64,000 bases of DNA from Candidatus Binataceae bacterium (GTDB taxonomy: Bacteria > Desulfobacterota > Binatia > Binatales > Binataceae). Under the pieces are notes generated by a model. The model worked only from the letters and a program-made list of their open reading frames with translations, was not told where the DNA came from and did not search any database. Numbering within the stretch: position 1 is the first letter of the stretch; each line of letters begins with the position of its first letter. Below are positions 37,614-61,821 of this stretch, piece by piece. The stretch covers positions 74,523 to 138,522 of the forward strand of contig JADMIL010000002.1 of NCBI GenBank assembly GCA_015478645.1, written 5' to 3'. Both the position numbers and the translations under genes were made by a program.

Positions 37614-38375
37614 CTATTGCGGCGCAATTGCGTCTTGAAGGACCAGCGTATGCAAATCTTCCTGGCGGAAAATTCCGGCGACCGCCCGGGTAATCGCGAC
37701 CGACAGAACTTCACCCGGCAGATCGTAGATCTCGGTCTCGTCGGCCGGCGCCGCATTGGCCGGTGGGGTCGGCGGATCGCTGTAGTCGGCGTCGCTCTCG
37801 CCCGACCAGAAGGGCACCGCGAAGGGCGGCTTGAAGATTTCAACCTCGAGCGTCACCTGCGCGGCCGTGAACCACGCCGGTCCGCCCTCCTGGTCGGCGC
37901 CGCGCTGCTTGACCACCCACAGGCCGGTGATCTTCGACTGCACGACGTAATCGGCGCGGCGCGCTTCGAGCGCCTGCGCGAGCGCGGCGGTCGAGGTTGA
38001 CGAGACCATCCCAGCCTCCCGCGCGGCCTGCGCGATCGCGTCGCGGAACAGCGGTCCCAACTCGGGGCCGTAAAGTTGCTGGACGGTGCGTCCGTGATGA
38101 TCCAGGACCACGCCGATCGCGGGATGGCCCTGGTAGGGGTCGTGCGCGGCGCTGCCGGCCTGCTTGAAATCGCGCACGTCGGCCGGGGTCAGGACCACGA
38201 TGCGCCGCGCGCTGGGATAGCTGTGCTGGTAGCCCTTAACCTGGAACGGGTAGTACTGCAGGGTCTGGATCGAGACCCGCGGCAACCCGAGGTTTTCATC
38301 GTTGGTCGCCGCACATCCGGCGAAGATCCACGCCAACCCCAGTCCGAGGAGGAGTGCGGCGATGCGGCGCGGCAT
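37614..38375 (-). CDS. hypothetical lipoprotein (last gene of the kinase operon)
   Basis: MPRRIAALLLGLGLAWIFAGC lipobox; 7 bp downstream of the TM-FHA gene. Confidence 0.8.
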   Translation of the reverse strand: MPRRIAALLLGLGLAWIFAGCAATNDENLGLPRVSIQTLQYYPFQVKGYQHSYPSARRIVVLTPADVRDFKQAGSAAHDPYQGHPAIGVVLDHHGRTVQQLYGPELGPLFRDAIAQAAREAGMVSSTSTAALAQALEARRADYVVQSKITGLWVVKQRGADQEGGPAWFTAAQVTLEVEIFKPPFAVPFWSGESDADYSDPPTPPANAAPADETEIYDLPGEVLSVAITRAVAGIFRQEDLHTLVLQDAIAPQ

Positions 38376-38382
38376 CGCGCGC

Positions 38383-39255
38383 TCAGCCTTGCGAGGCCTG
38401 GGACCGCTCGCGAAACAGGAACAGGGTGCCGCCGATCTCGACGCGGTCGCCGCTCTTCAGCACGCAGCGCCCACTGACCGGCGCGCGATTGACCAGCACC
38501 TGTCCACCGCCGGTCGAAGTGACGAAAAAACTCTTGCCCTCGTTGCGGATGATCGCGTGATGGGAGAGCACCGCCTGGTCGCCGAACAGGCCGATATCGC
38601 TCTCCTCGGCGCGGCCGATAAACGTCACCGGCTTGACCAGCGGATATTCGCGCCCTTCCCGCGCGTTGCGGCTCTGCGACCGCACGACCATCAGCCAGCC
38701 GCGCTTGAGCAGTTCGCTGACCAGGCCAACGAAGAAGCCGATCAGCGCGCCGATCAGGATAATCGCGATCGCGCGGCCAAAAGCCTGTGGAAAGGTCGCG
38801 GTGAGCGCCTGGTAGCAGAAGCCGCCGGCCGCGCCGCCGGTCAGCCCGCCGATCGCGCCGTTGCGCCGGCGCGCGTTGGAATGCGTCGCCCAGCCGACGC
38901 CGAGTCCGACCGCGAGGCCCAGCACGGCCCATCCGAGGATGCGGCCGTTGAAGCCGCCGAGCAGGTCGAAGGCGATTTCGCCGATCAGCAGGCCGAGCGC
39001 GCCGCCGATCGCGCCGATCAGCGCGCCGCCGCGGATCCCGCGCATCGCTTGCCGCCACTGGCCGACGCTGAGCGCTTCGATCGAGGCGAGAAACGCGCTG
39101 ATAAACATCCCCACCAGCGCGCCCAGCAGCAGGTCGCGGCCGTAGACCGAGCGGATACCCAAAAAGGGTTCCGACGCGCCCCACGCAGCGAGGCCGCCGA
39201 GTCCGCCGGCAGCGGCATAGAAGAGCAATTTTTCGCGCGAGACGTTACTGGCCAT
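38383..39255 (-). CDS. multi-TM (Gly-rich helices) protein with C-terminal FHA-like domain
   Basis: About six Gly-rich hydrophobic helices, then TFIGRAEESDIGL...HHAII...LKSGDRVEIG. Confidence 0.85.
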   Translation of the reverse strand: MASNVSREKLLFYAAAGGLGGLAAWGASEPFLGIRSVYGRDLLLGALVGMFISAFLASIEALSVGQWRQAMRGIRGGALIGAIGGALGLLIGEIAFDLLGGFNGRILGWAVLGLAVGLGVGWATHSNARRRNGAIGGLTGGAAGGFCYQALTATFPQAFGRAIAIILIGALIGFFVGLVSELLKRGWLMVVRSQSRNAREGREYPLVKPVTFIGRAEESDIGLFGDQAVLSHHAIIRNEGKSFFVTSTGGGQVLVNRAPVSGRCVLKSGDRVEIGGTLFLFRERSQASQG

Positions 39256-39359
39256 GCGCTGAAAGCATTACCTCTGCGAAGGTTCCGTTCAAGCACCCGC
39301 CCCGCGATAGCGCCACGGCCGCCGCGCGGAGCGGCGCACCGGCGTCCCGACGGAGGCGC

Positions 39360-41765
39360 TCAGTCGGCGTGGGTGGTCCACGTGCCGCGCTGGCCCGAGG
39401 GGGTCGATTCGAAGGTCCCGCTCAGTTGATCGTGATTGCGCTGGCCCTCGAAGAAATAGGTTTCGCCGCCATAAGGAACCTGGAACTGAAGATGGTCGCC
39501 GCGCACGAAGCCTTCGATCGGGGTCATCCCATAGCCGCTCAAATGGACCAGCAGTTCGCCATGCAGAAAGCCGTTGGGCTGCGGCCGCAGCCGCAACTCC
39601 ATGCTGACGTTGCCGTGGCCGCCGATCCCGTCGATCGTGCCGGTGGCGAGCGTCGGCGTCTCGAGACCGATAGCCGGCGAGACCGCGCCGCCGCTCGCAC
39701 CGCCGCCGGCGCTCGAGGCCCCGCCGCCCGCACCGCCACCGGTGTAGGGCAGGCCGGCGTCGGCCACCACGCGGAACTTGCGCTGGGCGAAATACTGGCC
39801 GTTCAAATAGAAATTCACGGTGTACTGGCCGGGCAGAAAGGCGCCGCCGGCGGAATTGCCGACGCGTCCGCTGAACACCGCGCGGTTGTTCGATTGCGCG
39901 ACGGTCTGGACGTCGGCGACGCTGCCCAGCGTGCTGCCGTCGGGTCCGATATAGGCGGCGTCGACGCGGTATTGATTGGTGTTAAGGCCGTACAGGCGAT
40001 TCTGGAACACCGCGCGCCATCCGATAAACAGCACTTTCGAGACGTTGAAGGCGCTGGTCGGACCCGAGAGCGCGGTGCCGTCCTTGGTACTGTTGACGAA
40101 TTCGATATTCTGCAGGGCGAGCGGGCGGCGCGTGCGCTCTTCGATCATCGCGACGCGGGCGGCGTCCTGCTTGGCCTTTTGGGCCTCGGCGCGGGCCGCG
40201 TTGGCGGCGTCGGCGGCGGCCTTGTCGGCGGCGGCGCGGGCGTTCAGGTCGGGCGTCACGTCGAAGCGCTGCTCGGCGAGGACCCGGTCGTCGGAGTAGA
40301 GCGCGATTTTGTAGCTGCCCGGGACGATCGGCGTGGCGTTGGGAATCAGCGCGACGCCGCTGAAGTCGGCCGCCGGATCGTTGGGCCCGACGTAGCGGGT
40401 GTCGGGACTCGCGGCGATCTGATTGCCCGACGGATCGAAAAAGCGCGCCTCGACCTGGTCGTTGCGCCCGTCGAGGCCGGTCATGTTGTTATGGAACGAC
40501 GCGTCCCATTTCACGTACTGCGCGTTGGCCAGCTCGGTATCGGTAAACGAAGCCTTGGGCGCCGACAGCGGGCTGCCCGAGCGGGTCGAGAGCGCCAGCG
40601 TCATGCGCTCGAAGGCGAGCGGATGGGCGCGCGCCTGGTCGAGCAGCTCCTGATGCTTCCACGGCAGGCTGTCGACGAATTGGGTCACGCCGAGCTGCGA
40701 CTGCAGGGCCGGGTCCGAGTAGATGTAGGTCGCGCCGAAGGCCAGTCCGGCGATCATCAGCGTGAACCCGCCCAGGCCGATCGCGCGGCGGCGCCAGTTG
40801 CCCGGCTTGCGCCGTGGCCGCCGCGCGGCCGCCTCGGCGAACTCGGGCGGCAGCGCCGCCAGCGCCAGGTCAGCCGTGCCGCTTTTGGCGTTGACCCGCA
40901 CCGCGCCCGCCGCGTCAAGCCCGCGCCCGTAGAGCAGCATGTCACGGAATTCCTGCACCGAGGCCGGCCGCCCGTCCATCTCGTAGGCCAGCGCGCGGTC
41001 GATCGCGCCGGCCAGATTGGTCGAGATATCGGGGCGCAGCGTGCGCACGGGCGGAAAGCTGAAGGGCGGAAATTTTTCCGGATCGCGGCCGGTGACCACG
41101 TAATGCAGCGTGGCGCCGAGCGAATAGAGGTCGCTGCGCGGATCGGCCACGCCCTGGTACTGCTCGGGCGGGGCAAAGCCCAGCGTGCCGATCATGGTGC
41201 CCTTGCGCGCCGCCTTGAACAGCCGTGCGATGCCGAAGTCGACCAGCACCACGCGCCCCTTCTCGGTGAGCATCACGTTGGACGGCTTCATGTCGCGGTA
41301 GACGATCGGCGGGATCAGCCCGTGCAGATAGGCCAGCACGTCGCACAACTGGCGCGCCACGTCGATCACCAGCCCCTCGGGCAGCGGTCCGCCACGCGCC
41401 GCAAGCTCCTCCTCGAGGTTGCGCCCCTCGACGTACTCCATCACCAGGTAGTGGCGGTTTTGATCGTCGAAGCGATCGCTTATCGCCGGGATTGCGGGAT
41501 GCTTGAGCTGGGCCAGCGTGTCGGCTTCGCGGGCGAAGTATTCGTTGGCCTCGATACGCTGCGCGGCGTCAATAAAATGATCGACCATCTCTTTGATCGC
41601 GCAGGGCCGGTTCGACAGCCGCTGGTCATGCGCGAGGTAGACCATCCCCATACCGCCGCCGCCGAGCAGGCGCTGCACCGCATAGCGCTTCTGCAGCACA
41701 GTGCCGGCTTCGAGCGGGCCGGGCAACGCTGCGGAGTTGGCGAGCGAGTTGGGCGTATTGGCCAT
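39360..41765 (-). CDS. Hanks-type Ser/Thr receptor kinase with TM and extracytoplasmic repeats
   Basis: LGGGGMGMVY, CAIKE, YRDMKPSN, DFG, FAPPEQ, DLYSLG; TM GLGGFTLMIAGLAFGATYIY; two beta-rich repeats. Confidence 0.93.
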   Translation of the reverse strand: MANTPNSLANSAALPGPLEAGTVLQKRYAVQRLLGGGGMGMVYLAHDQRLSNRPCAIKEMVDHFIDAAQRIEANEYFAREADTLAQLKHPAIPAISDRFDDQNRHYLVMEYVEGRNLEEELAARGGPLPEGLVIDVARQLCDVLAYLHGLIPPIVYRDMKPSNVMLTEKGRVVLVDFGIARLFKAARKGTMIGTLGFAPPEQYQGVADPRSDLYSLGATLHYVVTGRDPEKFPPFSFPPVRTLRPDISTNLAGAIDRALAYEMDGRPASVQEFRDMLLYGRGLDAAGAVRVNAKSGTADLALAALPPEFAEAAARRPRRKPGNWRRRAIGLGGFTLMIAGLAFGATYIYSDPALQSQLGVTQFVDSLPWKHQELLDQARAHPLAFERMTLALSTRSGSPLSAPKASFTDTELANAQYVKWDASFHNNMTGLDGRNDQVEARFFDPSGNQIAASPDTRYVGPNDPAADFSGVALIPNATPIVPGSYKIALYSDDRVLAEQRFDVTPDLNARAAADKAAADAANAARAEAQKAKQDAARVAMIEERTRRPLALQNIEFVNSTKDGTALSGPTSAFNVSKVLFIGWRAVFQNRLYGLNTNQYRVDAAYIGPDGSTLGSVADVQTVAQSNNRAVFSGRVGNSAGGAFLPGQYTVNFYLNGQYFAQRKFRVVADAGLPYTGGGAGGGASSAGGGASGGAVSPAIGLETPTLATGTIDGIGGHGNVSMELRLRPQPNGFLHGELLVHLSGYGMTPIEGFVRGDHLQFQVPYGGETYFFEGQRNHDQLSGTFESTPSGQRGTWTTHAD

Positions 41766-41858
41766 TGATGGTATTGCGTTTTTGAGGCCTGCTGGATGCT
41801 TGCTCAGTTAATACCCGGGTCGTTTCAGCGGCTGGAGCGCGGCGGGCGAACGCCGCGC

Positions 41859-43991
41859 TCAGGCCGCGATAATCACCACTACCGAGATGTTGTCGGTGCC
41901 GCCGCCGGCATTGGCTCCGACCACCAGTTCGCGCGCCGCCTGGTACGGATCGGCATGGCGGCGCAGCACCTGCTCGATCTGGGCGTCCTCGAGATGCGCG
42001 GTGAGGCCGTCGCTGCATAGCAGAATGCGGTCGCCGCGCTTGAGCCGCAGCATGAGCGATTCGGCGCCTGCCGGGCCGTTGGGCCGCGCGCCGAGCGAGC
42101 GCGTGATCACGTTCTTATGCTCATGATGGCGCGCCTCTTCGGGCGAGATCTGGCCAATCTCGATGAGCCGCTGGACCAGCGAATGATCTTTCGTCACCTG
42201 GCGCATCCCGTGCTGATCGCAAAAATAGGCGCGGCTGTCACCAACCCAGGCGACTGCGGCGTCGGGCGGCACGACCAGCGCGGCGACCGCCGTCGAGCCC
42301 ATTCCGCGCGCCTCGGGATGGCCGACCTGGTAGTCGAGCACTTGGGTATTGGCCCGTTCGAGCGCATCCTGCAAAATCTGCCGCATAGCGCCGCCGGCGG
42401 CGGGATCGCCGAGCTGGCTTTCGACGTAGCTGCGGATCGCGCCGACCGCGATCGCGCTGGCCATCTCGCCAGCCTCCGCCCCGCCCATCCCGTCGGCCAC
42501 GACGTAGAGGAAATTCTGCGCCGGCTCGAGCAGCGAGTCACGCTGGTATTCGACCGCCATGGTCGAATCTTCGTTAAACTCGCGCACCATCCCGACGTCG
42601 GTCAGCACGCCAGCCCGTATCCGGATAATTCCGGCGAGCTTGACCAGCTCGGTCTTGAGTGCGTCGAGGTTGGGCCAGCGCGACTCGGGCTCGAATTGCA
42701 ACGCGCGGCGCACCGCCTGTTCGAGCGCGGGCGCGACCACGTGCGGCGGGTAAAAGCGAATCGGCCCGGCCTCCTCGCGCCAGCTCTCGGCCTCGAGCCG
42801 CTCGCCGGTCAGGCAGGCGTAGAGCACGGCGCCGACCGAAAAGACGTCGGCGCGCTTGTCGACTTTTTTGCCCTTGTAGATTTCGGGCGCCGAGTAGCCG
42901 TCGTTGAAAATCGGCTCGGCCTGCAATTCGTTGTCGTTGCTGATGTAGTCGAGGCCGGTCAGTTGAATCCGCCCGTCGGCGCCGACGGCGATCGACTCGG
43001 GGCAAATATCATTGACCCGCAGGCCGCGCCGGTTGACGAAGGCGACCGCCTGGCAGAGTTGAATCGCGATCGCGATCGCGTCGGCCTCGCTCATCCGCAG
43101 GCCGCCCGCGCGGCGCGCCAGCGGCGTCAGCGGCTCGTCGGGGTAGAGCAGGTAGACCCGGCCGTCGCGCGCAAAGCCTTCGTGTGCGCGCTGGAACGCC
43201 GGATGGTTGAGCGTCATCGAGAGCGCCATCACCCGCCCGAAGACCTCGCCGAGATTGTCCTGCGAACCAGCGGGCTCGGGATTAACCGGCGCAGGCTCGG
43301 CGTCAAGTTCGGCGGCGGGCGCGGCCTCGCCGGAATGCGCCGCGTCGGAGTCGGTCGCGTCAGCGGCGGGCTCGGCCGCCTCGCCGATCGCGTCGGCGAG
43401 GACCAGCGGTGCGGCCGCCGCGCCATTGGTGTCCGTGGGCGGTGCGGAATTTTCAGCGTCGCCGGATTGATCGGTGGCGGAGACCGCGGGTTCCGTCGAT
43501 GCGATCGTTTCACCAATCGCCGCCGCGTCGCCGCTGGCGGGCGGAGGGGCGGCGCGCAGCGGCGGAAGTTCGGCGGTCTTGGCCCGCGGACCGTTCGGAT
43601 CGTCCAGCGCCGCCGCGGTTTCCGCGAGGTCGTCTGCGACAGTAACTTTCGCTACTTCTAGTACAGCCGCGGCGGCGGCCTCCGCCGCGTCTGCGCCGGG
43701 CGAAGCTTCGCCCGGCACAGACGCGGCCGGCGGTCCCGCCTGCTCGCGCAACTGCCAGCGCTCGATCCGCCCGGAGAGGCCGGGGCGCTCGGCGCGATAA
43801 CGATTTTCGTGCGCGGTCTGGCTAATCAGTTCGACAATGCGCAGACCGCGCCCGAGCCCGGTGCCGGGCGCAAGCGGCGGCAATTCGACGCTGGCCGGAC
43901 GTGCCGCCCCGCGCGACAGCCCCTGCCCGCAGCGATCGCAGAATTTATTTTGCTCGGCGTTCGGCGCGCCGCATTCGGAACACGTAATCAT
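41859..43991 (-). CDS. Zn-ribbon + degenerate kinase domain + PP2C (PPM) phosphatase fusion
   Basis: CSEC..CDRC; kinase remnants VNDICPESI, TGLDY, YSAPE, DVFSVG; PP2C motifs TDVG...NED, VADGMGG, GDSRAY, CSDGL, GTDNIS. Confidence 0.88.
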   Translation of the reverse strand: MITCSECGAPNAEQNKFCDRCGQGLSRGAARPASVELPPLAPGTGLGRGLRIVELISQTAHENRYRAERPGLSGRIERWQLREQAGPPAASVPGEASPGADAAEAAAAAVLEVAKVTVADDLAETAAALDDPNGPRAKTAELPPLRAAPPPASGDAAAIGETIASTEPAVSATDQSGDAENSAPPTDTNGAAAAPLVLADAIGEAAEPAADATDSDAAHSGEAAPAAELDAEPAPVNPEPAGSQDNLGEVFGRVMALSMTLNHPAFQRAHEGFARDGRVYLLYPDEPLTPLARRAGGLRMSEADAIAIAIQLCQAVAFVNRRGLRVNDICPESIAVGADGRIQLTGLDYISNDNELQAEPIFNDGYSAPEIYKGKKVDKRADVFSVGAVLYACLTGERLEAESWREEAGPIRFYPPHVVAPALEQAVRRALQFEPESRWPNLDALKTELVKLAGIIRIRAGVLTDVGMVREFNEDSTMAVEYQRDSLLEPAQNFLYVVADGMGGAEAGEMASAIAVGAIRSYVESQLGDPAAGGAMRQILQDALERANTQVLDYQVGHPEARGMGSTAVAALVVPPDAAVAWVGDSRAYFCDQHGMRQVTKDHSLVQRLIEIGQISPEEARHHEHKNVITRSLGARPNGPAGAESLMLRLKRGDRILLCSDGLTAHLEDAQIEQVLRRHADPYQAARELVVGANAGGGTDNISVVVIIAA

Positions 43992-43996
43992 CCGCC

Positions 43997-45784
43997 TCAG
44001 CCCCTTCGGAACTCCAATCTAGCACCGCCCAGCACGACTTCGTCGTGGTCTTTGAGTTGGTAGAGTTGATCGCGGCCGAGCCGCCCGCGTCCGGCGATAA
44101 AGGTGCCGTTGAGGCTGCCGAGATCGCGGATGAAATAGTCGGCACCGCGCCTGATGATCTCGGCGTGGCGGCGCGAGACCCGATCGATCCCGCGGCGCAG
44201 TTGGGCGAGATCGATATCGAGGCTCTCGCCGGCCCCGCGCTCCGCCTCGCTCGAGCGTCCGATCACGCAGCGTTCGCCGGCCAGCGCGAACTGCGCGCCT
44301 TCGCCCAAAGCTATCATCCGCGCACCGGCGACCGCCGCCGCGCCGCCCGCATAGCCGTTGCGCTGCGCCGCCGGCGCGCCATCGGATACCGCGGCCAGCG
44401 CCGGATGAATCCCCGGTGCGGCCGGACGGTTGACGGGAGTCGCCGGCGGGCCGTTCGCGTTAACCCTCCGCGCCGGCGCAAGTGGCGGCGGCGCGGGCTG
44501 GGTGATTGGACTGGCCGGATTTGGCTTGGTCGGCGGGCTTATCGGCCCGCGCGCGCCCGGCGCCTTGGCGCCGGCCGGGTGGCTCGCCGCGCCGGACTGC
44601 GGCGGGCGCGCCGGCTTGATCCCGAGATCCTGAGTCTTGGCGGTCGATGAAACCGCGGACCGAGCGGCGACCGGCGCGGCCGGCGTGCGCGGTACTTTGG
44701 GCGCCCACGGCGCCGGCGGCGGGAGGCTCCGCTGGGTCGCCTGATGCGCGATCGAAGGCGTCGCCTTGGGCCGGGCGGCGGGCGTCGCGATGCGCGAGGC
44801 ACTCATCGGATGGGCCGGCGGCGCTGGCGATGCCGACGGCGGGGGCGCGGGCCGATTCAGCACGATCGTCGCCATCGCGCCCATCGAATCGCCCCTGGCG
44901 CGATCGGCCGCCGCACCGTTGGGCGTCCCGGCGCAACGCGCTCCCGACGCGCCCGCCATCGCGAGCGCTTCGGGTCCCGGATTGGGCAGCAGGTCGCGCA
45001 TCTCGCGGGCCGAGCGCGGGCGCTTGATAACGTCCTTGTCGAGTGCGCGCATCACGATCTGTTCGGTCTGGATCGAAACCGCCGGCGCGAGCGCGCGCAG
45101 CGGCGGAAAGCTGAAGGGCGGCTCGAGCTGCGGATCGCGTCCGCTCATCAGGTGATGCATCGTGGCGGCGAGCGAGAAGAGATCCGAGCGCGGCTCCATC
45201 TTGCCCATGTACTGTTCGGGCGGCGCGTAGCCGACCGAGCCGATCTGGGTGCCGCGTCCGCCCGGCGGCAAAAACCGCGCGATGCCGAAATCGATCAGCA
45301 TCGCACGCCCGTGATTATCGATCATGATGTTGCCGGGCTTCAGGTCGCGATAGATAATCGGCGGGTTCTGCGCATGCAGGAATTGCAGCACGTCGAGGAT
45401 CTGCCGCGCCCAATGCACTACCGGGGCTTCGGCGAAGCGCCCGCCCACGCCGAGCGCGTCGAGATGGGCCTGCAGGTCGCCGCCCGCGACGAACTCCATC
45501 ACCAGGTAATGTCTGCCGCCCTCGCCGAAATAGTCCATCACCTGCGGGATGCTGGGATGGGAGAGGCTGGCGAGCACGCGGGCCTCGCGATTGAAATCCT
45601 CGACCGCCTTCTGCTCCTGGATCCCGTCGCCGATGATCATCTCTTTGCAGGCGACCGGGCGATTGGCCAGCCGGGTATCGTTGGCCAGATAGACCCGTCC
45701 CATGCCGCCCTGGCCGAGGACCTTGTGGATCCGGTAACGGCCGTCGAGCAGATGGCTGACGGGAAGCGGCTCACCCGATTTCAT
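43997..45784 (-). CDS. cytoplasmic Ser/Thr kinase with Pro-rich linker and C-terminal FHA
   Basis: LGQGGMGRVY, VACKE, YRDLKPGN, DFG, YAPPEQ; FHA IGRS...VSRRHAEI...DLGSLNGT. Confidence 0.93.
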   Translation of the reverse strand: MKSGEPLPVSHLLDGRYRIHKVLGQGGMGRVYLANDTRLANRPVACKEMIIGDGIQEQKAVEDFNREARVLASLSHPSIPQVMDYFGEGGRHYLVMEFVAGGDLQAHLDALGVGGRFAEAPVVHWARQILDVLQFLHAQNPPIIYRDLKPGNIMIDNHGRAMLIDFGIARFLPPGGRGTQIGSVGYAPPEQYMGKMEPRSDLFSLAATMHHLMSGRDPQLEPPFSFPPLRALAPAVSIQTEQIVMRALDKDVIKRPRSAREMRDLLPNPGPEALAMAGASGARCAGTPNGAAADRARGDSMGAMATIVLNRPAPPPSASPAPPAHPMSASRIATPAARPKATPSIAHQATQRSLPPPAPWAPKVPRTPAAPVAARSAVSSTAKTQDLGIKPARPPQSGAASHPAGAKAPGARGPISPPTKPNPASPITQPAPPPLAPARRVNANGPPATPVNRPAAPGIHPALAAVSDGAPAAQRNGYAGGAAAVAGARMIALGEGAQFALAGERCVIGRSSEAERGAGESLDIDLAQLRRGIDRVSRRHAEIIRRGADYFIRDLGSLNGTFIAGRGRLGRDQLYQLKDHDEVVLGGARLEFRRG

Positions 45785-45985
45785 GGTGTTCGATAATCCA
45801 TCCCGTGCGCGTCACTGAAGCTTGCGGCAAAGCCCGCGCGTTGGTGCCGCACGGCACAAATTTGCCCGCCGCATGCTCACCGGGCGTCCGCAGACCCCGA
45901 TGCGGCGCCGCACATTGGGTTGATCGCCGTCCGCGCGCGCGGCGCCATGATGGCGCGCGGATCGCGATCGCCCGCCGGGCCGCGC

Positions 45986-46651
45986 TTACGAGATTGGATC
46001 AATCACCAGCTTGAGGAAGGTCTTGCCGATAATGATCTCGTCGTCCCGTTTGACTTCGACTGGCGTGCCCGGAATCAGGCGGTTGCCACGATTGACATAG
46101 GTGCCGTTGAGGCTCCCGATGTCTTCGACGGTAATCTTGCCGCCCTCGATGATGATCAGCGCGTGCTTGCGCGAAATCTTGGCTTCGGGGTCGTCTTGTT
46201 CGAGGTCGACTTCCGGGAACGAGCCGGTTTCGGGATCCCAGCGGCCGATAAAATTTTGCCCCGCCTCGAGCGGAAACTCCTGGCCCTTGCGTCCGCCGCG
46301 GATCAGCGAGAGTTTCGCCTTGAAGGCGGCCGCGGTGGCTGCGGCTGCCGACGCGGGGGCCGGGGCCTCGGTTGGCGCCTTGATCTCGCCGGTCGGCGCT
46401 TGCGACGGTTTCGTCGTCTCGGCGCTCTCGCCAGCGGCCGGTGCGCCATTGGCGGCCGGCGCGCTTTCGGCCGGGGGGCTCTCGGCCGGCTCGAGCCCGG
46501 CCGCTGCGGCTTCGGCCGGGGCCTCGGCGACCGCCGCCGCGGCAGGCGCCGGCGCGGCGCTGCCCTCGACCGCGGCCAGCTTGGCGCCGCAGCCGTCGCA
46601 ATAGTCCAGACCTTCCATATTTTCGTAGCCGCATTCGCTGCACTTAATCAT
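45986..46651 (-). CDS. Zn-ribbon + FHA domain protein
   Basis: CSEC..CDGC; Ala/Pro/Glu linker; FHA IGRWD...ISRKHA...DIGSLNGT. Confidence 0.92.
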   Translation of the reverse strand: MIKCSECGYENMEGLDYCDGCGAKLAAVEGSAAPAPAAAAVAEAPAEAAAAGLEPAESPPAESAPAANGAPAAGESAETTKPSQAPTGEIKAPTEAPAPASAAAATAAAFKAKLSLIRGGRKGQEFPLEAGQNFIGRWDPETGSFPEVDLEQDDPEAKISRKHALIIIEGGKITVEDIGSLNGTYVNRGNRLIPGTPVEVKRDDEIIIGKTFLKLVIDPIS

Positions 46652-46717
46652 AATTCTTATGCACCTCGTCCGCCGGGGGGCGCCCGGCGCGTCGCCGGTT
46701 CCCCGGATGGTTTGTGC

Positions 46718-48022
46718 CTATTCGCCTTTCTGTAAATCCTTGAGCGCTTCGGGGTCGAGCATCTGGGTTTTGCGCACCACCGCCTGCGCCTGCAACAGAG
46801 TTGTCTTGGCCGCTTTGGTTTGCAAGGTCTGGGTCTTTTTCACCTGGTCCATCAGGCCGACCAGGGCCTGCGTGGCCTTGACGTTGCCCAGCCGCTGGGT
46901 GCCCTGAATCGCGTTGCCGAGCAGCCGCGTCGCGCGATCGACGTTGCCCGCCTTGAGCTCCTCTTCGGCGCGCGCCTGGAGCTTGGCGATCGAGACCTGA
47001 TCGACCAGGTTCATCACCCGTCCGTTGCGCTTGCTGGTGAGCGTGCGGTCGAGCGTGTAGTCGACGGCGATATCCAGCGCCGCGGTGCGCTCGCCGACGC
47101 CCGGCACCTCAAAGCGGAAGATCGATTGCGCGATCCGCACCGGGCCGGGCTTGCGCGGCGGCAGCACCAGCGTCAACAGCACCGAACCGGGGACGCCGCT
47201 TTCGAGGTCGCCGATCTCGTAAGTGATCTTGCGGTCGTCGGTGACCAGCGGGGTGCCCAGCGCGTAGATTTCGGGGCTTGCGCGAAACGCCTCGCGGACC
47301 TGCACGCCCTGCGCGAGCGTCGCCTCGATCCGGCCGTTGCGCACGCTGACCGCACGCAACCCCTGCAGCTCGTCCTCGAAGATGCCGGGAATCTCGGCCG
47401 GGTCGCCGATGAAGTGATATTTGCCGTGCGAGTCCTGCGCGATGCGCATCAGCAGCTTTTCGTTGAACTCGACGCCCACGCCCATCGCGGAGAACGACAT
47501 CTGATCGCGGTTCTGGGTGGCCAGTTCGAGGCACGCGGTCTCTTCGTAAGTCTGTCCGTCGGTCAGCACCAGTACGCGATTGAGCCGGTTGGGCGCGTGG
47601 TTCCGTTTGACCTCGTCGATCGCCGCGCGCATCCCCAGCGCCATCTGCGTGCCGCCGCCGATTTCGAGCAGATCGATATCCTCGAGCGCGCGCCGCACTA
47701 CACTCTGATTGTGAATCTGATCGGACGGTACGATCACCTGCGCCTTGTCGGCGAAGGCGATCACCGCGACCTTGTCGTCGGGCGCGACGTTGGCGGCGAG
47801 GAACTTGACCGCCTCGATTACGAACTCGAGGCGCCGCTCGTCGTACATCGAGCCCGAACGGTCGAGCACCAGGGCCAGGTTAAGCGGCATCCGGGTTCCA
47901 CCGGCGCCGCCGCCCGCGCCGCTAGCGACGGCCTCGAGCAGGACGTAGAGCACAAAATTCTCAGCAGTCGAGAGGACATACTCGCTGCTGGCCAGCGCGT
48001 CGAAGGTAAGCGGTTCGGCCAT
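46718..48022 (-). CDS. vWA domain protein with intact MIDAS and C-terminal extension
   Basis: LVLDRSGSM (DxSxS), GGT, LTDG; C-terminal beta domain plus helical tail. Confidence 0.92.
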   Translation of the reverse strand: MAEPLTFDALASSEYVLSTAENFVLYVLLEAVASGAGGGAGGTRMPLNLALVLDRSGSMYDERRLEFVIEAVKFLAANVAPDDKVAVIAFADKAQVIVPSDQIHNQSVVRRALEDIDLLEIGGGTQMALGMRAAIDEVKRNHAPNRLNRVLVLTDGQTYEETACLELATQNRDQMSFSAMGVGVEFNEKLLMRIAQDSHGKYHFIGDPAEIPGIFEDELQGLRAVSVRNGRIEATLAQGVQVREAFRASPEIYALGTPLVTDDRKITYEIGDLESGVPGSVLLTLVLPPRKPGPVRIAQSIFRFEVPGVGERTAALDIAVDYTLDRTLTSKRNGRVMNLVDQVSIAKLQARAEEELKAGNVDRATRLLGNAIQGTQRLGNVKATQALVGLMDQVKKTQTLQTKAAKTTLLQAQAVVRKTQMLDPEALKDLQKGE

Positions 48023-48307
48023 CTAGGATTCACCCCAGGTTGATTTTAGGTGCATCGTTCGGGACATGGCAACAACACGCTCAGCGCCGCCGTGCAATTG
48101 TGGAGCGGCGCGCCGCCTTCAGAACCGGTCTACGCCGCCGTTTTCCGCCCAACGACCGTTCGGTTATCATACGCGGCTAATTAGACGAGTCATCACGGCG
48201 GATATTCGCACACGGCCGCGAGCGCGTGCCAGAGCGGGGCTGGTGGTCCGTCGCCGTGCGGCCCGCATGCTCGCGGCGCGGCCGCCGCGCGGCCAAGGAG
48301 TCGAGCG

Positions 48308-48543
48308 ATGAATTTGCGCGCACAATGCGCTATCGCCGGGCGGGGCGCTGCCGGTCAATACCGGGGGCGGCCAGCTCAGCTCCTTCTATATGTGGGGGAT
48401 GACGCCCGTCAGCGAGGCGGTAATCCAGGTGCGCGGCGCGGGCGGCGCGCGCCAGGTGCCGCGGCATGAGGTCGCGCTGGTCTCGGGCAGCGGTGGAATC
48501 CTGTCGACCCCATTCGACGCTGGTGCTCGGGGCCCATTCGTAA
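48308..48543 (+). pseudogene. SCP2/lipid-transfer-type thiolase remnant (large internal deletion plus 1-nt insertion)
   Basis: AAGGAG + ATG 48308 gives MNLRAQCAIAG (thiolase-like N-terminus). It abuts, in another frame, PGGALPVNTGGGQLS...EAVIQVRG..GARQV...ALVSG (thiolase C-terminus). Removing one C at 48508-48511 restores STHSTLVLGAHS* (TAA 48541). Confidence 0.8.
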
Positions 48544-48608
48544 CCCGGATTTGGCACGCTTGTCATATCGGCGTAATTGGCCTTATGATTGGTGAAGCGA
48601 GTATTAAG

Positions 48609-49026
48609 ATGACTGAAGCAGTCAAACCGGTTCCAAACGTCACGCCGCAAATGGTGTCCTTCTTCGCGGGCGCGCGCCCGCGCCAGTTGCTGGTTCAGCA
48701 ATGTGACGAATGCGGCACCCTGCGGGTTCCCGGCCCACGCCACCTGCATCAACTGTCTGTCGGCCGCCGCCAGCTGGATTGCGGCCAGCGGGCGTGGCGA
48801 AATTCTCAGCTTCAACGTCATGCATCAGGTCTACCATCCGGGCTTTGCCGCCGAGGTACCTTACGCCGTGGTAATGGTTAAGCTTGAAGAAGGACCCAAG
48901 GTCGTCTCGAATCTCGTCGGGGTGAAGCCGGACGAGATCCGCTGCGGCCTGCCGGTCGAGGTGGTGTTCGAACGCGTCAACGACCAGATTACGCTGCCCA
49001 AGTTCCGGCTGCGCGCGGCCGCCTGA
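48609..49026 (+). pseudogene. DUF35 Zn-ribbon/OB-fold protein with 1-nt insertion
   Basis: MTEAVKPVP...QQCDECGTLR, then a frame switch at the GGG of 48724-48726 to FPAHATCINC...PYAVVMVKLEEGPKVVSNL. Removing one G gives a 138-aa DUF35 protein. Confidence 0.85.
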
Positions 49027-49102
49027 GGCGGCCACGCGATTTTCCCCAGGGCCGCGCACCGCAGACACTTCGCATTGCATACAAAAGGTATAAGTTTTGC
49101 CC

Positions 49103-50245
49103 ATGCTATCGCTCGATCAGAATTACCTGCATCGGCTGATTGAAAGCTCCACCGACATCATTATCGCCGTCGATCGCGACGGCACGATTATTTATTACAA
49201 CGACGGCGCCCGCCGGAATCTGCACTTCTCGCAGGGCGAGATCATCGGGCAGAAGATCGACCGCATCTACCCCTCGATGGACGAGGCGCGGCGCGTGATG
49301 CGCGCGATGCGCGCGGCCGAGGGCGGACGCATCTCGAACTTCGAGACGGTGCTCCAGAACAAGGACAATCAGCAGATCCCGTGCGCTATCTCGGGATCGA
49401 TCATCTATGACGACCAGGGCACGGCGATCGGTTCGATCGGTTTCGCCCGCGATATCCGGCGCATGCGCCAGCGCGAGCAGCTCGCCACCTGCGGCGAAAT
49501 CGCGGTCAGCCTGGCCCACGAGATCAACAATCCGCTCGAGGCCATCACCAACAATCTTGACCTGCTTTCGCGCGACGTCGAAGCCCATATGAGCGAAGCC
49601 GAACTGGTGGTCGAGACCGAGCGGCTGGAGTCGATCCGCGCCGGCCTGGCCCGGGTTCAGGCCATCGTCCGGCGGCTCGACGAGATGAGCCGCAGGGGCG
49701 TCTATGAGACCCGCGACTATCTGCGCGGCAAGAAGATGGCCGACCTCGCGCCGCGCGCCGACGAATCCGCCGGGCCCGCGGTCGAACCGGTCAACGGCGC
49801 CCACGCGCGCGACGATTGGGCGCTCAGCGGGATGACCGTGCTGGTGCTCGACGACGACCTCTCCGTGGTCAGCTCGCTGGCCGACGTGCTGCGCGCCGAA
49901 CGCTGTGTCGTACACACCGCGACGCGCCCCAGCGCCGCGCTCGGGATTCTGCGCAATATGAAGATCGACGCCGTGATCTCGGACGTCGTGATGCCCGAGA
50001 TGGACGGCTACGATTTCTACCTGAAGGTCAAAGAGGAGATGCCGCAGTTGCCGGTGATCCTGATGACCGCCTTCAATTACGACAAGGATCACATCATCAA
50101 ACGCAGCCGTCTAATCGGGCTTGAGGCGGCGCTGTTCAAAAAGCCGGTCAATCCGGCCAAGCTGCGCCAGGTGCTGATGCAGGCGCGGACGCGGATGCAG
50201 GCGCAAAAAACGATCGTGGCGACGACCGCTGCCGCCCGCCGCTGA
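49103..50245 (+). CDS. PAS - HisKA (phosphoacceptor) - receiver protein lacking a HATPase domain
   Basis: PAS (STDIIIAVDRDG..IYYN); H-box LAHEINNPL; REC LVLDDD...ISDVVMPEMDG...MTA...KKP; no N/G1/F/G2 boxes. Confidence 0.85.
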   Translation: MLSLDQNYLHRLIESSTDIIIAVDRDGTIIYYNDGARRNLHFSQGEIIGQKIDRIYPSMDEARRVMRAMRAAEGGRISNFETVLQNKDNQQIPCAISGSIIYDDQGTAIGSIGFARDIRRMRQREQLATCGEIAVSLAHEINNPLEAITNNLDLLSRDVEAHMSEAELVVETERLESIRAGLARVQAIVRRLDEMSRRGVYETRDYLRGKKMADLAPRADESAGPAVEPVNGAHARDDWALSGMTVLVLDDDLSVVSSLADVLRAERCVVHTATRPSAALGILRNMKIDAVISDVVMPEMDGYDFYLKVKEEMPQLPVILMTAFNYDKDHIIKRSRLIGLEAALFKKPVNPAKLRQVLMQARTRMQAQKTIVATTAAARR

Positions 50246-58785: not shown

Positions 58786-61700
58786 ATGAACTCATCGCTC
58801 ACGCCCAATTCCGTAATCGGCCGATCGGTCGCGCTCAAGACCGCTGCAATAGTACGCGCAATCGTGTACGCGATAGTGCAATTGATGGCAGCCGCGCTCG
58901 CGATACTCTTGCTGACGGGTACGGCGGTGCGCGCGCAAGCCGATAATTCCGGCGATCAACCGAGCTATCAGCAATCGGCGAATGGGCCCGGTGCAATGGC
59001 GACGCCGGGAGTCGCCATCGATGGCCAAACGATGCCCGCGGCGGGCGGCGGGCAGATCAATTCGGGCCAGCTCGGCGTCGGCAGTTCGGGCGGCGCCGAC
59101 CTCGGCGGGTCGGGCGCGGACAACCGGCTTGGCCAGGCCGGCCAGCCGGGTCCGGGCTTCGGCGGCGGCGTCAGCAACGGGATGAGCGGCGGTCCCAGCC
59201 TGAGCACGGTCGGTACGGACGTGAGCGGCGGCGCGGCCAGCATCGCGCAGGCCGCCTTCAAGCTCGGCATGTCGCCGGCCGAGATGGCCGGACTGCGCAA
59301 CCAGATGGCCAATGGCAGTCTCACGCCCGACGAATTGCAGCAGCTCTGTCTGCGCTTCGCCTCGCGCCAGTTGACGCCCCATGACGTAGCCGGGATCGCC
59401 AACTCGCTGGGCATCGCGCTGACCGACCAGCAGCTCGCGCAGCTCAAGAGCTGCACGCAACTGGCGGCGCCCGATAGTGCATCGCCGCCGCCGGCCGATC
59501 ATCTCGGGGGGAGCGCGCCGGGCGCAGCGGGGCCGGGCACGCCGCCGGCCAGTCCACCCTCATCGATCGAGCGGTCGTTCCAGGCGCTCGATTCGGGGCT
59601 CACGCCGACCGTCCCGTCGGCGCAAAATCTCACGCAATTCGGCTATGCGGTGTTCGACGCGCGGGTCTCGACATTCGCCCCGGTCGGCGACGTGCCGGTG
59701 GGCCCGGACTACGCAGTCGGTCCGGGCGACGAATTGAAAGTGCTCATCTGGGGCCGCGTCAACGACAAGCTCGACCTGGTCGTGCAGCGCGACGGCAGCG
59801 TGCTGATGCCGCAAATCGGGCCGCTGCAGGTCGCGGGACTGAGCTTCGCGCAGGCCCAGCGCCTGATCGAGGAGCGCAGCGAGCAGATCACCGGCGTGCG
59901 CGCCGACGTGACGATGGGCCGGCTGCGGACCATCCAGGTGTCGGTGATCGGTGAGGTCAAGCAGCCGGGAACCTACACGGTGAGCGCGCTGTCGCGGGTC
60001 TCGAACGCGCTCAGCGCCTCGGGCGGAATCACGCGGGTCGGCAGCCTGCGCCAGGTCGAGCTCAGGCGCGGCAATCAGCTGATCAGGGTGATCGATCTGT
60101 ACGACCTGCTGCAATCGGGCAGCACCCAGGCCGACCAGCGGCTCGCGGCCGACGACGTGATCTTCGTGCCGGTGATCGGGCCGGTGACGGCGGTCGCCGG
60201 CGACGTCAAGCGGCCGGCGATCTATGAACTCGCGCGCAACGGCGAGAGTCTGCCCGGGGTGCTGCGGCTGGCTGGGGGAATCAGCGCGTTCGGCTACGCG
60301 CAGCGCGTCCAGGTCGAACGCGTGCAGAACCATGAGCGGCGGATTGCGCTCGATATCGATATGAATCAGGCGCGCGCCCAGCGCTTTGCGATCGATGACG
60401 GCGACCTGATCAAGGTCTACCCGGTGCTGCCGCAGCAAAAGGATATCGTCACGGTCAAGGGCAACGTCAATCGGCCGGGCAGCTATCAGTGGTATGCGGG
60501 CATGAAGGTGACCGACCTGGTGCGCAAGGCCGAAGGAACCGCGCCGCAGACTTTTTTCCGCTACGCGCTGATCCGGCGGCTGAGCGGTGCGGACAAGATG
60601 GTGCGGCTGGTGCCGGTCGACCTGGGCGACGCGCTGAGCGATACCGGTGGCGGCGCCGGCGACGCCGCATTGCAAGCGCAGGATACGCTGACGGTCTTCA
60701 ACCAGGACCAGATCAAGGATCTGCCGACGGTGCAGGTCTTCGGCGAGGTGCGCAACCCCGGCTACTACGTGCTCGACCGCGGGATGCACGTGAGCGACCT
60801 GATCTACCTGGCGGGCGGGCTCAAGGACGACGCCTACCTGACCCGGGCCGAACTGGCGCGCACCCAGGTGGTCAACGGCCAGCGCACCAGCCATACCTAC
60901 GAGGACCTCGATCTGCATCAGGCGCTGAGCGGCAGCGACCGCAGTAATCCGGCGCTGGCGGCCAACGATCAGCTGTTCGTGCGGCGGGCCTCCGACTGGC
61001 ATCTGCCGTGGGTGGTCGAGGTGCGCGGCCAGGTCGTGCGGCCGGGTCCGTACACGATTCATGAGGGCGAGCGGCTGGCCTCGCTGCTCGAGCGGTGCGG
61101 CGGGCTGATGCCCGACGCGTATCCGGCGGGGACGATTTTCGTGCGCCAGTCGATCAAGCAGATCGAGCAGAAGCGGCTCGACCAGGCGCGCCAGCAGATG
61201 CAGCAGGAGATCGCGCGCTACGAACTGCAGCCGGCCGGCCTCGATCAGGACGCGAATCAGAGCCCGCCGTCGAAGGTCGACCCGTCCTCGATGGTCATGC
61301 TGCAGAAGGTGCTCGATCAGTCGGAGAGCCAGCAGGCGCAAGGCCGTCTCGTGATCCATCTGCGGCCGCTCGATCAGCTCGCCCGCTCCGAGGACGATAT
61401 CGTGCTCGAAGATCAGGATCAGATCCTGGTGCCGCGCCGGCCCGCGTCGGTCAACGTGCTGGGCGGCGTTTACAGCCCCAACGCGATCGTCTACCAGCCG
61501 TCGCTGACCGTGCGCGACTACCTCGAGCGCGCCGGCGGCGCCAACGAGGACGGCGATATCGATCATATTTTTGTGGTCCAGGCCGACGGCTCGATCATGA
61601 CCGACGCCGGGCTCAAGAGCGGCGCCGAGGCCAGCATGTTCCCGCTGCTGCCGGCGATTTCGGGTGGCCTGATGGGGCAGCATCTGCAGCCCGGCGACAC

Positions 61701-61821
61701 GGTCTTCGTACCGGTCAAGCTCTACTATCCGAACAAGACCCGGCTCTACAGCAATATGGCGCAGATCTTTGCGTCGGCCGCGCAGGGCGTGGCGATCGTT
61801 GCGCTCGCGGCGGGCCTCTGA
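58786..61821 (+). CDS. large SLBB-repeat polysaccharide export protein (Wza/KpsD-like)
   Basis: DYAVGPGDELKVLIWG (Poly_export), repeated V.V.GEV..PG.Y SLBB units, GDTVFVP; N-terminal signal and Gly-rich region. Confidence 0.9.
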   Translation: MNSSLTPNSVIGRSVALKTAAIVRAIVYAIVQLMAAALAILLLTGTAVRAQADNSGDQPSYQQSANGPGAMATPGVAIDGQTMPAAGGGQINSGQLGVGSSGGADLGGSGADNRLGQAGQPGPGFGGGVSNGMSGGPSLSTVGTDVSGGAASIAQAAFKLGMSPAEMAGLRNQMANGSLTPDELQQLCLRFASRQLTPHDVAGIANSLGIALTDQQLAQLKSCTQLAAPDSASPPPADHLGGSAPGAAGPGTPPASPPSSIERSFQALDSGLTPTVPSAQNLTQFGYAVFDARVSTFAPVGDVPVGPDYAVGPGDELKVLIWGRVNDKLDLVVQRDGSVLMPQIGPLQVAGLSFAQAQRLIEERSEQITGVRADVTMGRLRTIQVSVIGEVKQPGTYTVSALSRVSNALSASGGITRVGSLRQVELRRGNQLIRVIDLYDLLQSGSTQADQRLAADDVIFVPVIGPVTAVAGDVKRPAIYELARNGESLPGVLRLAGGISAFGYAQRVQVERVQNHERRIALDIDMNQARAQRFAIDDGDLIKVYPVLPQQKDIVTVKGNVNRPGSYQWYAGMKVTDLVRKAEGTAPQTFFRYALIRRLSGADKMVRLVPVDLGDALSDTGGGAGDAALQAQDTLTVFNQDQIKDLPTVQVFGEVRNPGYYVLDRGMHVSDLIYLAGGLKDDAYLTRAELARTQVVNGQRTSHTYEDLDLHQALSGSDRSNPALAANDQLFVRRASDWHLPWVVEVRGQVVRPGPYTIHEGERLASLLERCGGLMPDAYPAGTIFVRQSIKQIEQKRLDQARQQMQQEIARYELQPAGLDQDANQSPPSKVDPSSMVMLQKVLDQSESQQAQGRLVIHLRPLDQLARSEDDIVLEDQDQILVPRRPASVNVLGGVYSPNAIVYQPSLTVRDYLERAGGANEDGDIDHIFVVQADGSIMTDAGLKSGAEASMFPLLPAISGGLMGQHLQPGDTVFVPVKLYYPNKTRLYSNMAQIFASAAQGVAIVALAAGL

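Follow-up and report, generated by a model that had tools for sequence, protein, structure and literature searches.

We analyzed a 64,000-nucleotide stretch of DNA (hereafter the window; positions 74,523 to 138,522 of contig JADMIL010000002.1, GenBank assembly GCA_015478645.1) from a Candidatus Binataceae bacterium, in which seven co-directional open reading frames (ORFs) on the minus strand span positions 37614-48022. The seven genes, g1 to g7, are a real, conserved operon of the Binataceae, which are uncultured soil bacteria, and their arrangement is not a product of chance. Judging from profile searches and structural models, the operon probably specifies a phosphothreonine switch of the ArnA/ArnB type that is linked to the cell envelope, a reading to which we assign a probability of roughly 0.6. 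Its core is of a known kind, found in the archaeal ArnA/ArnB pair and in an operon of Deinococcus radiodurans, and the Binataceae operon is a new, enlarged variant of it.

ArnB-like and ArnA-like proteins

The first gene, g1 (46718-48022, minus strand; 434 amino acids), encodes a vWA protein that we predict to be an ArnB-like cytoplasmic hub. It has three parts: a beta-sandwich formed by residues 5-33 and 225-323, a vWA domain at about residues 47-223 (Pfam VWA, 65.5 bits) and a threonine-rich C-terminal helix bundle at residues 334-433. The five MIDAS residues (metal-ion-dependent adhesion site; D54, S56, S58, T125 and D155) are invariant among 36 family members. A family profile built from 36 full-length homologues matched three PDB entries far above other vWA proteins, namely 4fx5_A (6e-36), ArnB (8s05_A, 1.5e-34) and the ArnB paralogue vWA2/ArnE (5a8j_A, 6e-26), and the single g1 sequence could be aligned to ArnB across residues 48-400. 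The AlphaFold2 model (pLDDT 88.8) shows the vWA domain, the beta-sandwich and the helix bundle. When this model was searched with Foldseek, 4FX5 ranked first (query and target TM-scores of 0.74 and 0.75), with ArnB (8s05_A; only about 18% identical in sequence) at 0.67 and 0.76 and vWA2 (5a8j) at 0.60 and 0.69. Because the resemblance was found in three ways (by profile, by single sequence and by predicted fold), we consider g1 to be a homologue of archaeal ArnB that has its three-part architecture.

The best PDB match by both sequence and structure, 4FX5, is a structural-genomics entry for caci_2163 of Catenulispora acidiphila. After ArnB and vWA2 in the Foldseek ranking came Sec23 and Sec24, which also combine a vWA domain (trunk), a beta-sandwich and a helical domain with a zinc finger (PMC12852372), but which differ in their gelsolin domain and vesicle-coat role and reached TM-scores of only about 0.5.

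In ArnB, every known phospho-threonine lies in the helix bundle, to which the FHA domain of ArnA binds (PMC6509490). Threonine is enriched in the corresponding bundle in 36 of 36 members of the g1 family (0.092 versus 0.052), serine is not, and the last 70 residues of g1 contain nine threonines. By analogy with ArnB, this bundle may be phosphorylated and then bound by an FHA domain.

Adjacent to g1 lies g2 (45986-46651, minus strand; 221 amino acids), which consists of an N-terminal zinc ribbon of the form CxxC-x10-CxxC (residues 4-21), a linker rich in Ala and Pro and, at the C terminus, an FHA domain (Pfam, 48.7 bits) with the GR, SxxH and NG residues of that fold. Its FHA core matched the ArnA entries 5a8i_A and 8s05_C at about 1.5e-10, and the top PDB match of its 30-residue zinc ribbon was the ArnA zinc finger, with 13 of 23 residues identical and the same cysteine spacing. 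In ArnA, too, a flexible linker joins a zinc ribbon to an FHA domain, and the length is nearly the same (223 amino acids). We therefore identify g2, from its sequence and architecture, as an ArnA-like zinc-ribbon/FHA reader.

In the system known from Sulfolobus acidocaldarius and Saccharolobus islandicus (PDB 8S05, 5A8J and 5A8I; PMC6509490, PMC12852372, PMC10470591), the kinase ArnC phosphorylates threonines of the helix bundle, these are bound by the FHA domain, the zinc finger binds to both beta-sandwich and C-terminal domain, and PP2A reverses the modification (PMC6509490, PMC12852372). Both systems have a vWA hub with an intact MIDAS, a beta-sandwich and a threonine-rich helix bundle. Hanks-type kinases are the writers in the archaea (ArnC and ArnD) and the predicted writers here, and the eraser is a Ser/Thr phosphatase of a different family in each case, PP2A in the archaea and, by prediction, PP2C in the Binataceae. 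The Binataceae version differs in that it is bacterial, carries its kinases and phosphatase in the same operon and has no archaellum; it also has two extra FHA readers (on the kinase g3 and the membrane protein g6), a receptor kinase ectodomain and a lipoprotein.

Kinases and phosphatase

Two genes encode kinases that are of the active Hanks type by their motifs. The first, g3 (43997-45784, minus strand; 595 amino acids), is a soluble Ser/Thr kinase (Pfam Pkinase, 135 bits) with a complete set of catalytic motifs (GQGGMG, VACK, YRDLKPGN, DFG and APPE), followed by a Pro/Ala-rich linker of about 220 residues and a C-terminal FHA domain (49.5 bits). The second, g5 (39360-41765, minus strand; 801 amino acids), combines a kinase domain (Pkinase, 126 bits), in which the G-loop, VAIK lysine, [H/Y]RD...N, DFG and APE are all present, with one transmembrane helix at residues 328-346 and a C-terminal region of about 450 residues that is predicted to be periplasmic.

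The phosphatase is encoded by g4 (41859-43991, minus strand; 710 amino acids), in which Pfam recovered a PP2C domain, a zinc ribbon and a partial Pkinase match. The PP2C domain appears to be of the active type (NCBIfam Stp1_PP2C, 234.5 bits versus a cut-off of 230). A motif check of the kinase-like domain found no G-loop, VAIK, HRD or DFG, and this domain is split by an acidic insert of 150 residues with 28 acidic and 4 basic residues (net charge -24). The N-terminal zinc ribbon has the same type and cysteine spacing as that of g2. These sequence features make g4 a fusion of a PP2C phosphatase with a dead kinase domain and a g2-type zinc ribbon, and the predicted eraser of the system.

The Pfam scan recovered the domains that a first-pass annotation of the window had listed for the seven genes, and the intact MIDAS and the pseudokinase in g4 agree with it as well. 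Its description of the operon as a self-contained set of writers, readers and an eraser, to which a transmembrane kinase and a membrane-bound FHA protein belong, is supported.

Related loci in other bacteria

A search of representative sequences with g1 returned 217 proteins with E values below 1e-30, many of them full-length (about 420 residues) and 30-42% identical. From a four-sequence alignment we fetched 80 genomic loci and scored them with the domains of the window itself, defining an ArnB-like vWA locus as one in which the vWA domain is accompanied by the C-terminal part; 19 loci fell into this class and 61 were generic vWA loci. On the same strand and within 10 kb, PP2C genes were found at 17 of the 19 ArnB-like loci versus 2 of the 61 generic ones, FHA genes at 14 versus 2 and kinase genes at 15 versus 6. 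Fisher P values for this enrichment ranged from 3e-13 to 2e-8 and should be read as indicative only, since shared phylogeny makes the loci non-independent.

Hosts of the module included Chloroflexota (among them Herpetosiphon giganteus), Nitrospirota, deltaproteobacterial metagenome-assembled genomes (MAGs) and a rumen bacterium. Two further loci, one from the Armatimonadota (L020) and one whose title gives no phylum (L019), had the same partner genes, and in these the C-terminal part of the vWA protein was not detected. Terminal zinc ribbons were a recurrent feature, present in 14 of 21 FHA proteins, 5 of 5 pseudokinase-PP2C proteins, most PP2C genes adjoining the vWA gene and some kinases. 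Among the loci examined, the Binataceae operon is the most complete version. At an Anaerolineaceae locus (L010:3161-4075), two small genes that by eye resemble a MNT-HEPN toxin-antitoxin pair lie between the ArnB-like vWA gene and the zinc-ribbon FHA gene.

ArnA and ArnB have so far been treated as a crenarchaeal regulator of motility and the DNA-damage response, and according to a 2026 paper on the ArnAB structure, bacterial proteins that share the ArnB architecture for the most part play no role in multi-phosphorylation processes (PMC12852372). The linkage of ArnB-like vWA genes to genes for zinc-ribbon FHA proteins, PP2C phosphatases and Hanks kinases in several phyla points in the opposite direction.

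The same linkage bears on whether the operon could instead be a regulator of the cell wall, growth or division, similar to PknB/PstP/FhaA/FhaB, in which the vWA protein would be only an accessory. The operon is core-conserved as growth regulators are, its pairing of a pseudokinase with FHA domains is reminiscent of MviN-FhaA, and g2 and g6 gave sub-threshold matches to FhaB/FipA (49.5 and 23.5 bits), but these lie far under the cut-off of 125. The PknB_PASTA model likewise reached only about 190 bits versus a cut-off of 450, through the kinase domain only and with no PASTA domain, and no rodA, pbpA, ftsW or other cell-wall genes lie nearby. Since the vWA gene is also the first and best conserved of the operon, and its presence predicts the partner genes across phyla, we judge a growth regulator of this kind to be improbable.

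The Deinococcus radiodurans operon

A partly studied bacterial relative came from a tblastn search of plasmid records, which led to the 412-kb replicon of Deinococcus radiodurans and the genes DRA0331-0334. DRA0331 aligned with g1 over residues 14-387 of the latter (26% identity, E = 4e-19). DRA0333, annotated as an FHA protein, has the same N-terminal zinc ribbon as g2, and residues 200-612 of DRA0334 aligned with residues 288-707 of g4 (E = 2e-30), a match that spans the kinase-like region and the PP2C domain. Counterparts of the vWA, zinc-ribbon FHA and PP2C genes, together with a membrane kinase, thus appear to lie within one operon in this species, for which phosphatase activity and FHA-dependent modulation of kinases have been reported (bioRxiv 10.64898/2026.01.23.701218).

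The two operons also differ. That of Deinococcus has four genes in the order vWA-kinase-FHA-PP2C, and lacks a second kinase, a multi-transmembrane FHA protein, a lipoprotein and a large ectodomain. Its kinase carries an N-terminal zinc ribbon, and none was seen on its phosphatase. The additions of the Binatia are the 450-residue periplasmic domain of g5, the strongly conserved multi-transmembrane FHA protein g6, a second kinase-FHA protein and a lipoprotein with a predicted LptE-like fold. The first-pass annotation had proposed the operon as a candidate undescribed system; this no longer holds for the core, which matches ArnB/ArnA and DRA0331, DRA0333 and DRA0334, and stands for the enlarged Binataceae variant.

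Two observations on the Deinococcus records arose from this comparison. The preprint names residues 210-368 of DRA0334 a 'KI-FHA' domain (bioRxiv 10.64898/2026.01.23.701218). This region falls within the alignment to g4 (E = 2e-30 overall), where it pairs with the pseudokinase, including an APE-like segment and the helix that follows, and in the DRA0334 homologue at L081:11093-12943 Pfam found only PP2C and no FHA domain; it may thus be no FHA domain but a degenerate kinase domain. In isolate DRR11 (L081:10148-11091), DRA0333 is annotated as two coding sequences; translation hits a stop after the linker, so the record probably contains a frameshift or a misassembly.

Membrane and envelope components

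The remaining two genes extend the core to the envelope. The product of g6 (38383-39255, minus strand; 290 amino acids) has a Gly-rich, multi-transmembrane domain at residues 1-185 and a cytoplasmic FHA domain (Pfam FHA and Yop-YscD_cpl), a topology that is predicted to place an FHA reader in the inner membrane. Its transmembrane domain is 76-89% identical among the 119 non-self clusters listed, nearly all of which are exactly 290 residues long, and homologues of this domain were found in two Nitrospirota loci (L013 and L024) and in L019. In a Nitrospiraceae MAG (L013:12088-14331) and a deltaproteobacterial MAG (L011:4779-7094), a g6-type multi-transmembrane domain is fused to an FHA domain and a second vWA domain in proteins of 747-771 residues; both fusions have a C-terminal CxxC...CxxC motif, and the one in L011 has one further FHA domain. 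Searching the literature for a connection of FraH to any vWA protein yielded nothing usable.

The last gene, g7 (37614-38375, minus strand; 253 amino acids), encodes a lipoprotein with a signal peptide and a FAGC lipobox, whose Cys21 is invariant in the aligned homologues, and its product is therefore located outside the cytoplasm. It had no Pfam, NCBIfam or PADLOC match, and sequence searches of the PDB and of Pfam at lenient thresholds gave nothing meaningful. Of its 279 homologues, those with a name are all annotated as hypothetical, and the sole organism label given is Binataceae; g7 was found only in this group, with 49-78% identity across the aligned homologues. Foldseek comparison of the AlphaFold2 model (pLDDT 86.9) pointed, with modest TM-scores, to the broad lipoprotein superfold of LptE, PelC, CsgG and DUF330, a predicted fold that would place g7 at the envelope and names neither a function nor a ligand.

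These components resemble a pathway that controls the type VI secretion system (T6SS) of Pseudomonas aeruginosa, TagQRST-PpkA-PppA-Fha1. There, an outer-membrane lipoprotein and periplasmic input feed a transmembrane Hanks kinase, a PP2C phosphatase resets the system and an FHA scaffold reads phosphothreonine; the vWA domain of PpkA is part of the kinase and periplasmic, and the pathway is encoded inside the T6SS cluster. With its lipoprotein, transmembrane kinase, PP2C phosphatase and FHA proteins, the Binataceae operon might by the same logic regulate, through threonine phosphorylation, an envelope machine whose genes lie elsewhere, for example a T6SS (of the PpkA/PppA/Fha1/TagQR type), pili or a polysaccharide exporter. 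The predicted fold of g7 is that of outer-membrane lipoproteins that form rings in export machines (PelC, CsgG, LptE and FlgT), and ArnAB itself regulates a type-IV-pilus-like machine (PMC6509490). In the operon, however, the vWA protein is separate and cytoplasmic rather than a periplasmic part of the kinase, the TagH model (TIGR03354) scored 23-30 bits, far below its cut-off of 120, and no T6SS domain was present in the window ORFs scanned. We therefore regard service to such a machine as unlikely.

Operon structure and conservation

From g1 to g7 the genes are separated by 66, 201, 5, 93, 104 and 7 bp, the short gaps being those between g3 and g4 and between g6 and g7, as the first-pass annotation had stated. 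A scan of the minus strand found no terminator-like sites between the genes. A promoter-like site, TTGCCA-18-TAAAAT, lies at 48072-48043 within the upstream intergenic region (48023-48310, minus strand), about 20 bp from the start of g1, and matches 10 of 12 consensus positions, being a consensus match only. A search of the 201-bp gap between g2 and g3 for a small ORF gave no convincing candidate, and none of the seven genes encodes a transcription factor or an effector.

Matching RNA contigs were found in two soil metatranscriptomes; they are short, come from close relatives and between them cover six of the seven genes in part. A single contig crosses the junction of g1 and g2 with three mismatches. 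Together the contigs are weak evidence for expression of the operon genes and for co-transcription of g1 with g2.

The nearest organism-labelled proteins to g1 are from Candidatus Binataceae, and g1 is 83-90% identical to 118 of the 120 homologue clusters listed (all but the nearest). Gene order is fixed in every complete Binataceae locus. It is identical to that of the window in L002, L004 and L008, and a 1.25-Mb Binataceae contig with independent gene calls (L082) has the same seven genes between the same flanks, with gaps of only 4-5 bp between g3 and g4, g4 and g5, and g6 and g7. The conservation of order beyond a single strain, which the first-pass annotation had called for, is thus observed. 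Compared with L002 and L004, identity was 74-84% for g1, about 76% for the kinase domains, about 56% for the ectodomain and about 45% for g7, so that conservation is highest in the cytoplasmic hub and lowest in the periplasmic parts. The g5 ectodomain follows the same trend, with 55-57% identity within the Binataceae and 30-34% to L005 (Binatia) and L006 (labelled Methylomirabilota). These two loci, whose vWA proteins are 58% identical to g1, are without g3 and g7 and keep the other five genes in order; g3 is a Binataceae-specific addition.

Could the operon be two or three modules (g1-g2, g3-g4 and g5-g7) that are merely syntenic? The 201-bp gap between g2 and g3, the gaps of 93-104 bp that flank g5 and the absence of g3 and g7 from the more distant L005 and L006 would fit such a view. 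It is countered by the fixed order, the tight spacing in L082, the clean terminator scan and the co-occurrence of the vWA, zinc-ribbon FHA, PP2C and kinase core across phyla, and we consider it very unlikely.

Downstream of the operon lie zwf and glk; upstream are a divergent DUF35/thiolase remnant and a PAS-HisKA-REC gene. Because identity is high and the operon occupies the same chromosomal place in another genome, from the PAS/REC gene to zwf-glk, it has the pattern of a vertically inherited core operon and not of a mobile island.

This setting matters for the possibility of an anti-phage or conflict system resembling TerY-P, in which phosphorylation would turn on a defence. TerY-P triads contain the same three enzyme types (vWA, PP2C and Hanks kinase) and also carry an appended zinc ribbon module, and some are defence systems (PMC10542128). 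According to Anantharaman 2012 and Gao 2020 (cited in PMC10542128), the triad comprises a TerY-like vWA protein, PP2C and a kinase that bears a zinc ribbon or OB fold at its C terminus, and it lies among ter genes, restriction systems or defence islands. The Pfam vWA-TerF-like model did match g1 (31.5 bits versus a cut-off of 29.4), but the generic VWA model scored far higher, and TerY-type vWA proteins do not have the three-part ArnB architecture. PADLOC models PD-T4-6 and mad6 matched the operon kinases as generic Hanks kinases; beyond one weak PP2C match (PDC-M21C), PADLOC had no match for the vWA (0 families), FHA or lipoprotein genes. TerY-P also has no FHA reader. Of the operon kinases, g3 ends in an FHA domain and g5 in a periplasmic domain, not in the zinc ribbon or OB fold of a TerY-P kinase. 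The neighbours here are zwf, glk and two-component genes, and neither the core-gene conservation nor the constant chromosomal place is a defence-island pattern. With no nuclease or other effector in the operon and no T6SS or ter domains in the window ORFs scanned, a TerY-P-type defence is highly unlikely, in line with the first-pass view that the operon corresponds to neither T6SS regulation nor TerY-P.

A proposed phosphothreonine switch

How an ArnA/ArnB-type switch of this composition might work can be outlined from the archaeal precedent. An envelope or periplasmic condition would be sensed by g5 through its periplasmic domain, perhaps with the help of g7, and the kinase would be activated. 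Together with the soluble g3, it would place phosphate on several threonines of the g1 helix bundle, and both kinases probably also phosphorylate the long linkers of their partners. The reader g2 would already be bound to g1 by way of its zinc ribbon, in the manner of ArnA and ArnB in 8S05, and its FHA domain would clamp the phosphorylated bundle, turning a loose complex into a tight FHA-phosphothreonine complex. An earlier suggestion, made for the same genes, that contacts between phosphothreonine and FHA domains assemble a vWA-containing complex agrees with the ArnAB precedent; the cues suggested alongside it (cell contact, phage or damage) and a part for the lipoprotein in sensing are guesses. 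The FHA domains of g6 and g3 would offer alternative docking sites for phosphothreonine, one of them (g6) at the membrane. Finally, g4 would dock through its zinc ribbon, its pseudokinase or both, and would reset the switch by dephosphorylating the hub and the kinases.

Several points weigh against this interpretation. The FHA domain of g2 scores equally well against OdhI and GarA as against ArnA, and the match of its zinc ribbon to ArnA is not significant alone (E = 0.11). The eraser is a PP2C (PPM family) enzyme with a pseudokinase and a zinc ribbon, whereas that of Sulfolobus is a PP2A (PPP family) enzyme. There could be an internal promoter in the 201-bp gap between g2 and g3, and the RNA contigs, being short, from relatives and possibly inclusive of DNA, do not establish a full-length transcript. 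Sequence searches of the PDB and of Pfam at lenient thresholds found no significant match for the g5 ectodomain and nothing meaningful for the membrane domain of g6. Neither domain matches a known family, and the proposed input and output are therefore guesses. The organism, moreover, is an uncultured MAG.

A more specific version of the ArnA/ArnB-type switch would make the whole operon a periplasm-driven relocation switch on an ArnB-like, Sec23/24-like hub, with the activity of the g6 membrane domain as its real output. The near-identical zinc ribbons of g2 and g4 would compete as address tags for one groove of the hub, g4 would use its dead kinase domain to bring the phosphatase to active kinases, and graded phosphorylation at several sites would move the hub between the soluble g2 and the membrane-bound g6. 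We offer this version tentatively, as a rather doubtful extension; if true, it would provide the first defined input and output for bacterial switches of the ArnAB type.

For the ArnA/ArnB-type switch more generally, the Binataceae operon adds a candidate input (the periplasmic domain of g5 with g7) and a candidate membrane output (g6), and on that account it could help to direct experiments on the signals that drive such switches and on the processes under their control. The practical value of the operon itself is limited by its source in an uncultured MAG.

Genomic surroundings

Just upstream of the operon promoter, positions 48312-49026 (plus strand) contain a Thiolase_C_1 fragment of 40 residues followed by an ORF for a DUF35/ChsH2-type protein with a zinc ribbon and an OB fold, which together have the appearance of what is left of an SCP-x-type thiolase/DUF35 pair. 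Upstream of the operon in L002, L004, L007 and L008, the DUF35-like part occurs as well. Next to it, and likewise divergent from the operon, lies the PAS-HisKA-REC gene (49097-50245, plus strand), whose product is without an ATPase domain. Its position is kept in L002, L003, L004, L007, L008 and L082, which may reflect synteny or a functional link.

Two of these loci, L007 and L008, are from long-read MAGs and have the operon genes in many frame-shifted pieces, most likely because of assembly indel errors and not pseudogenisation. The operon of L006 is 54-64% identical to that of the Binatia and has the gene order of L005; given its Methylomirabilota label, this could be a binning error or a lateral transfer.

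Among the larger ORFs of the window, our scan identified an ABC permease, an AI-2E transporter, a PMT-type glycosyltransferase and an M20 peptidase. It also identified the selenocysteine elongation factor SelB (14627-16555, plus strand) and a Wza-like polysaccharide exporter of 1011 amino acids with multiple SLBB domains (58786-61821, plus strand).

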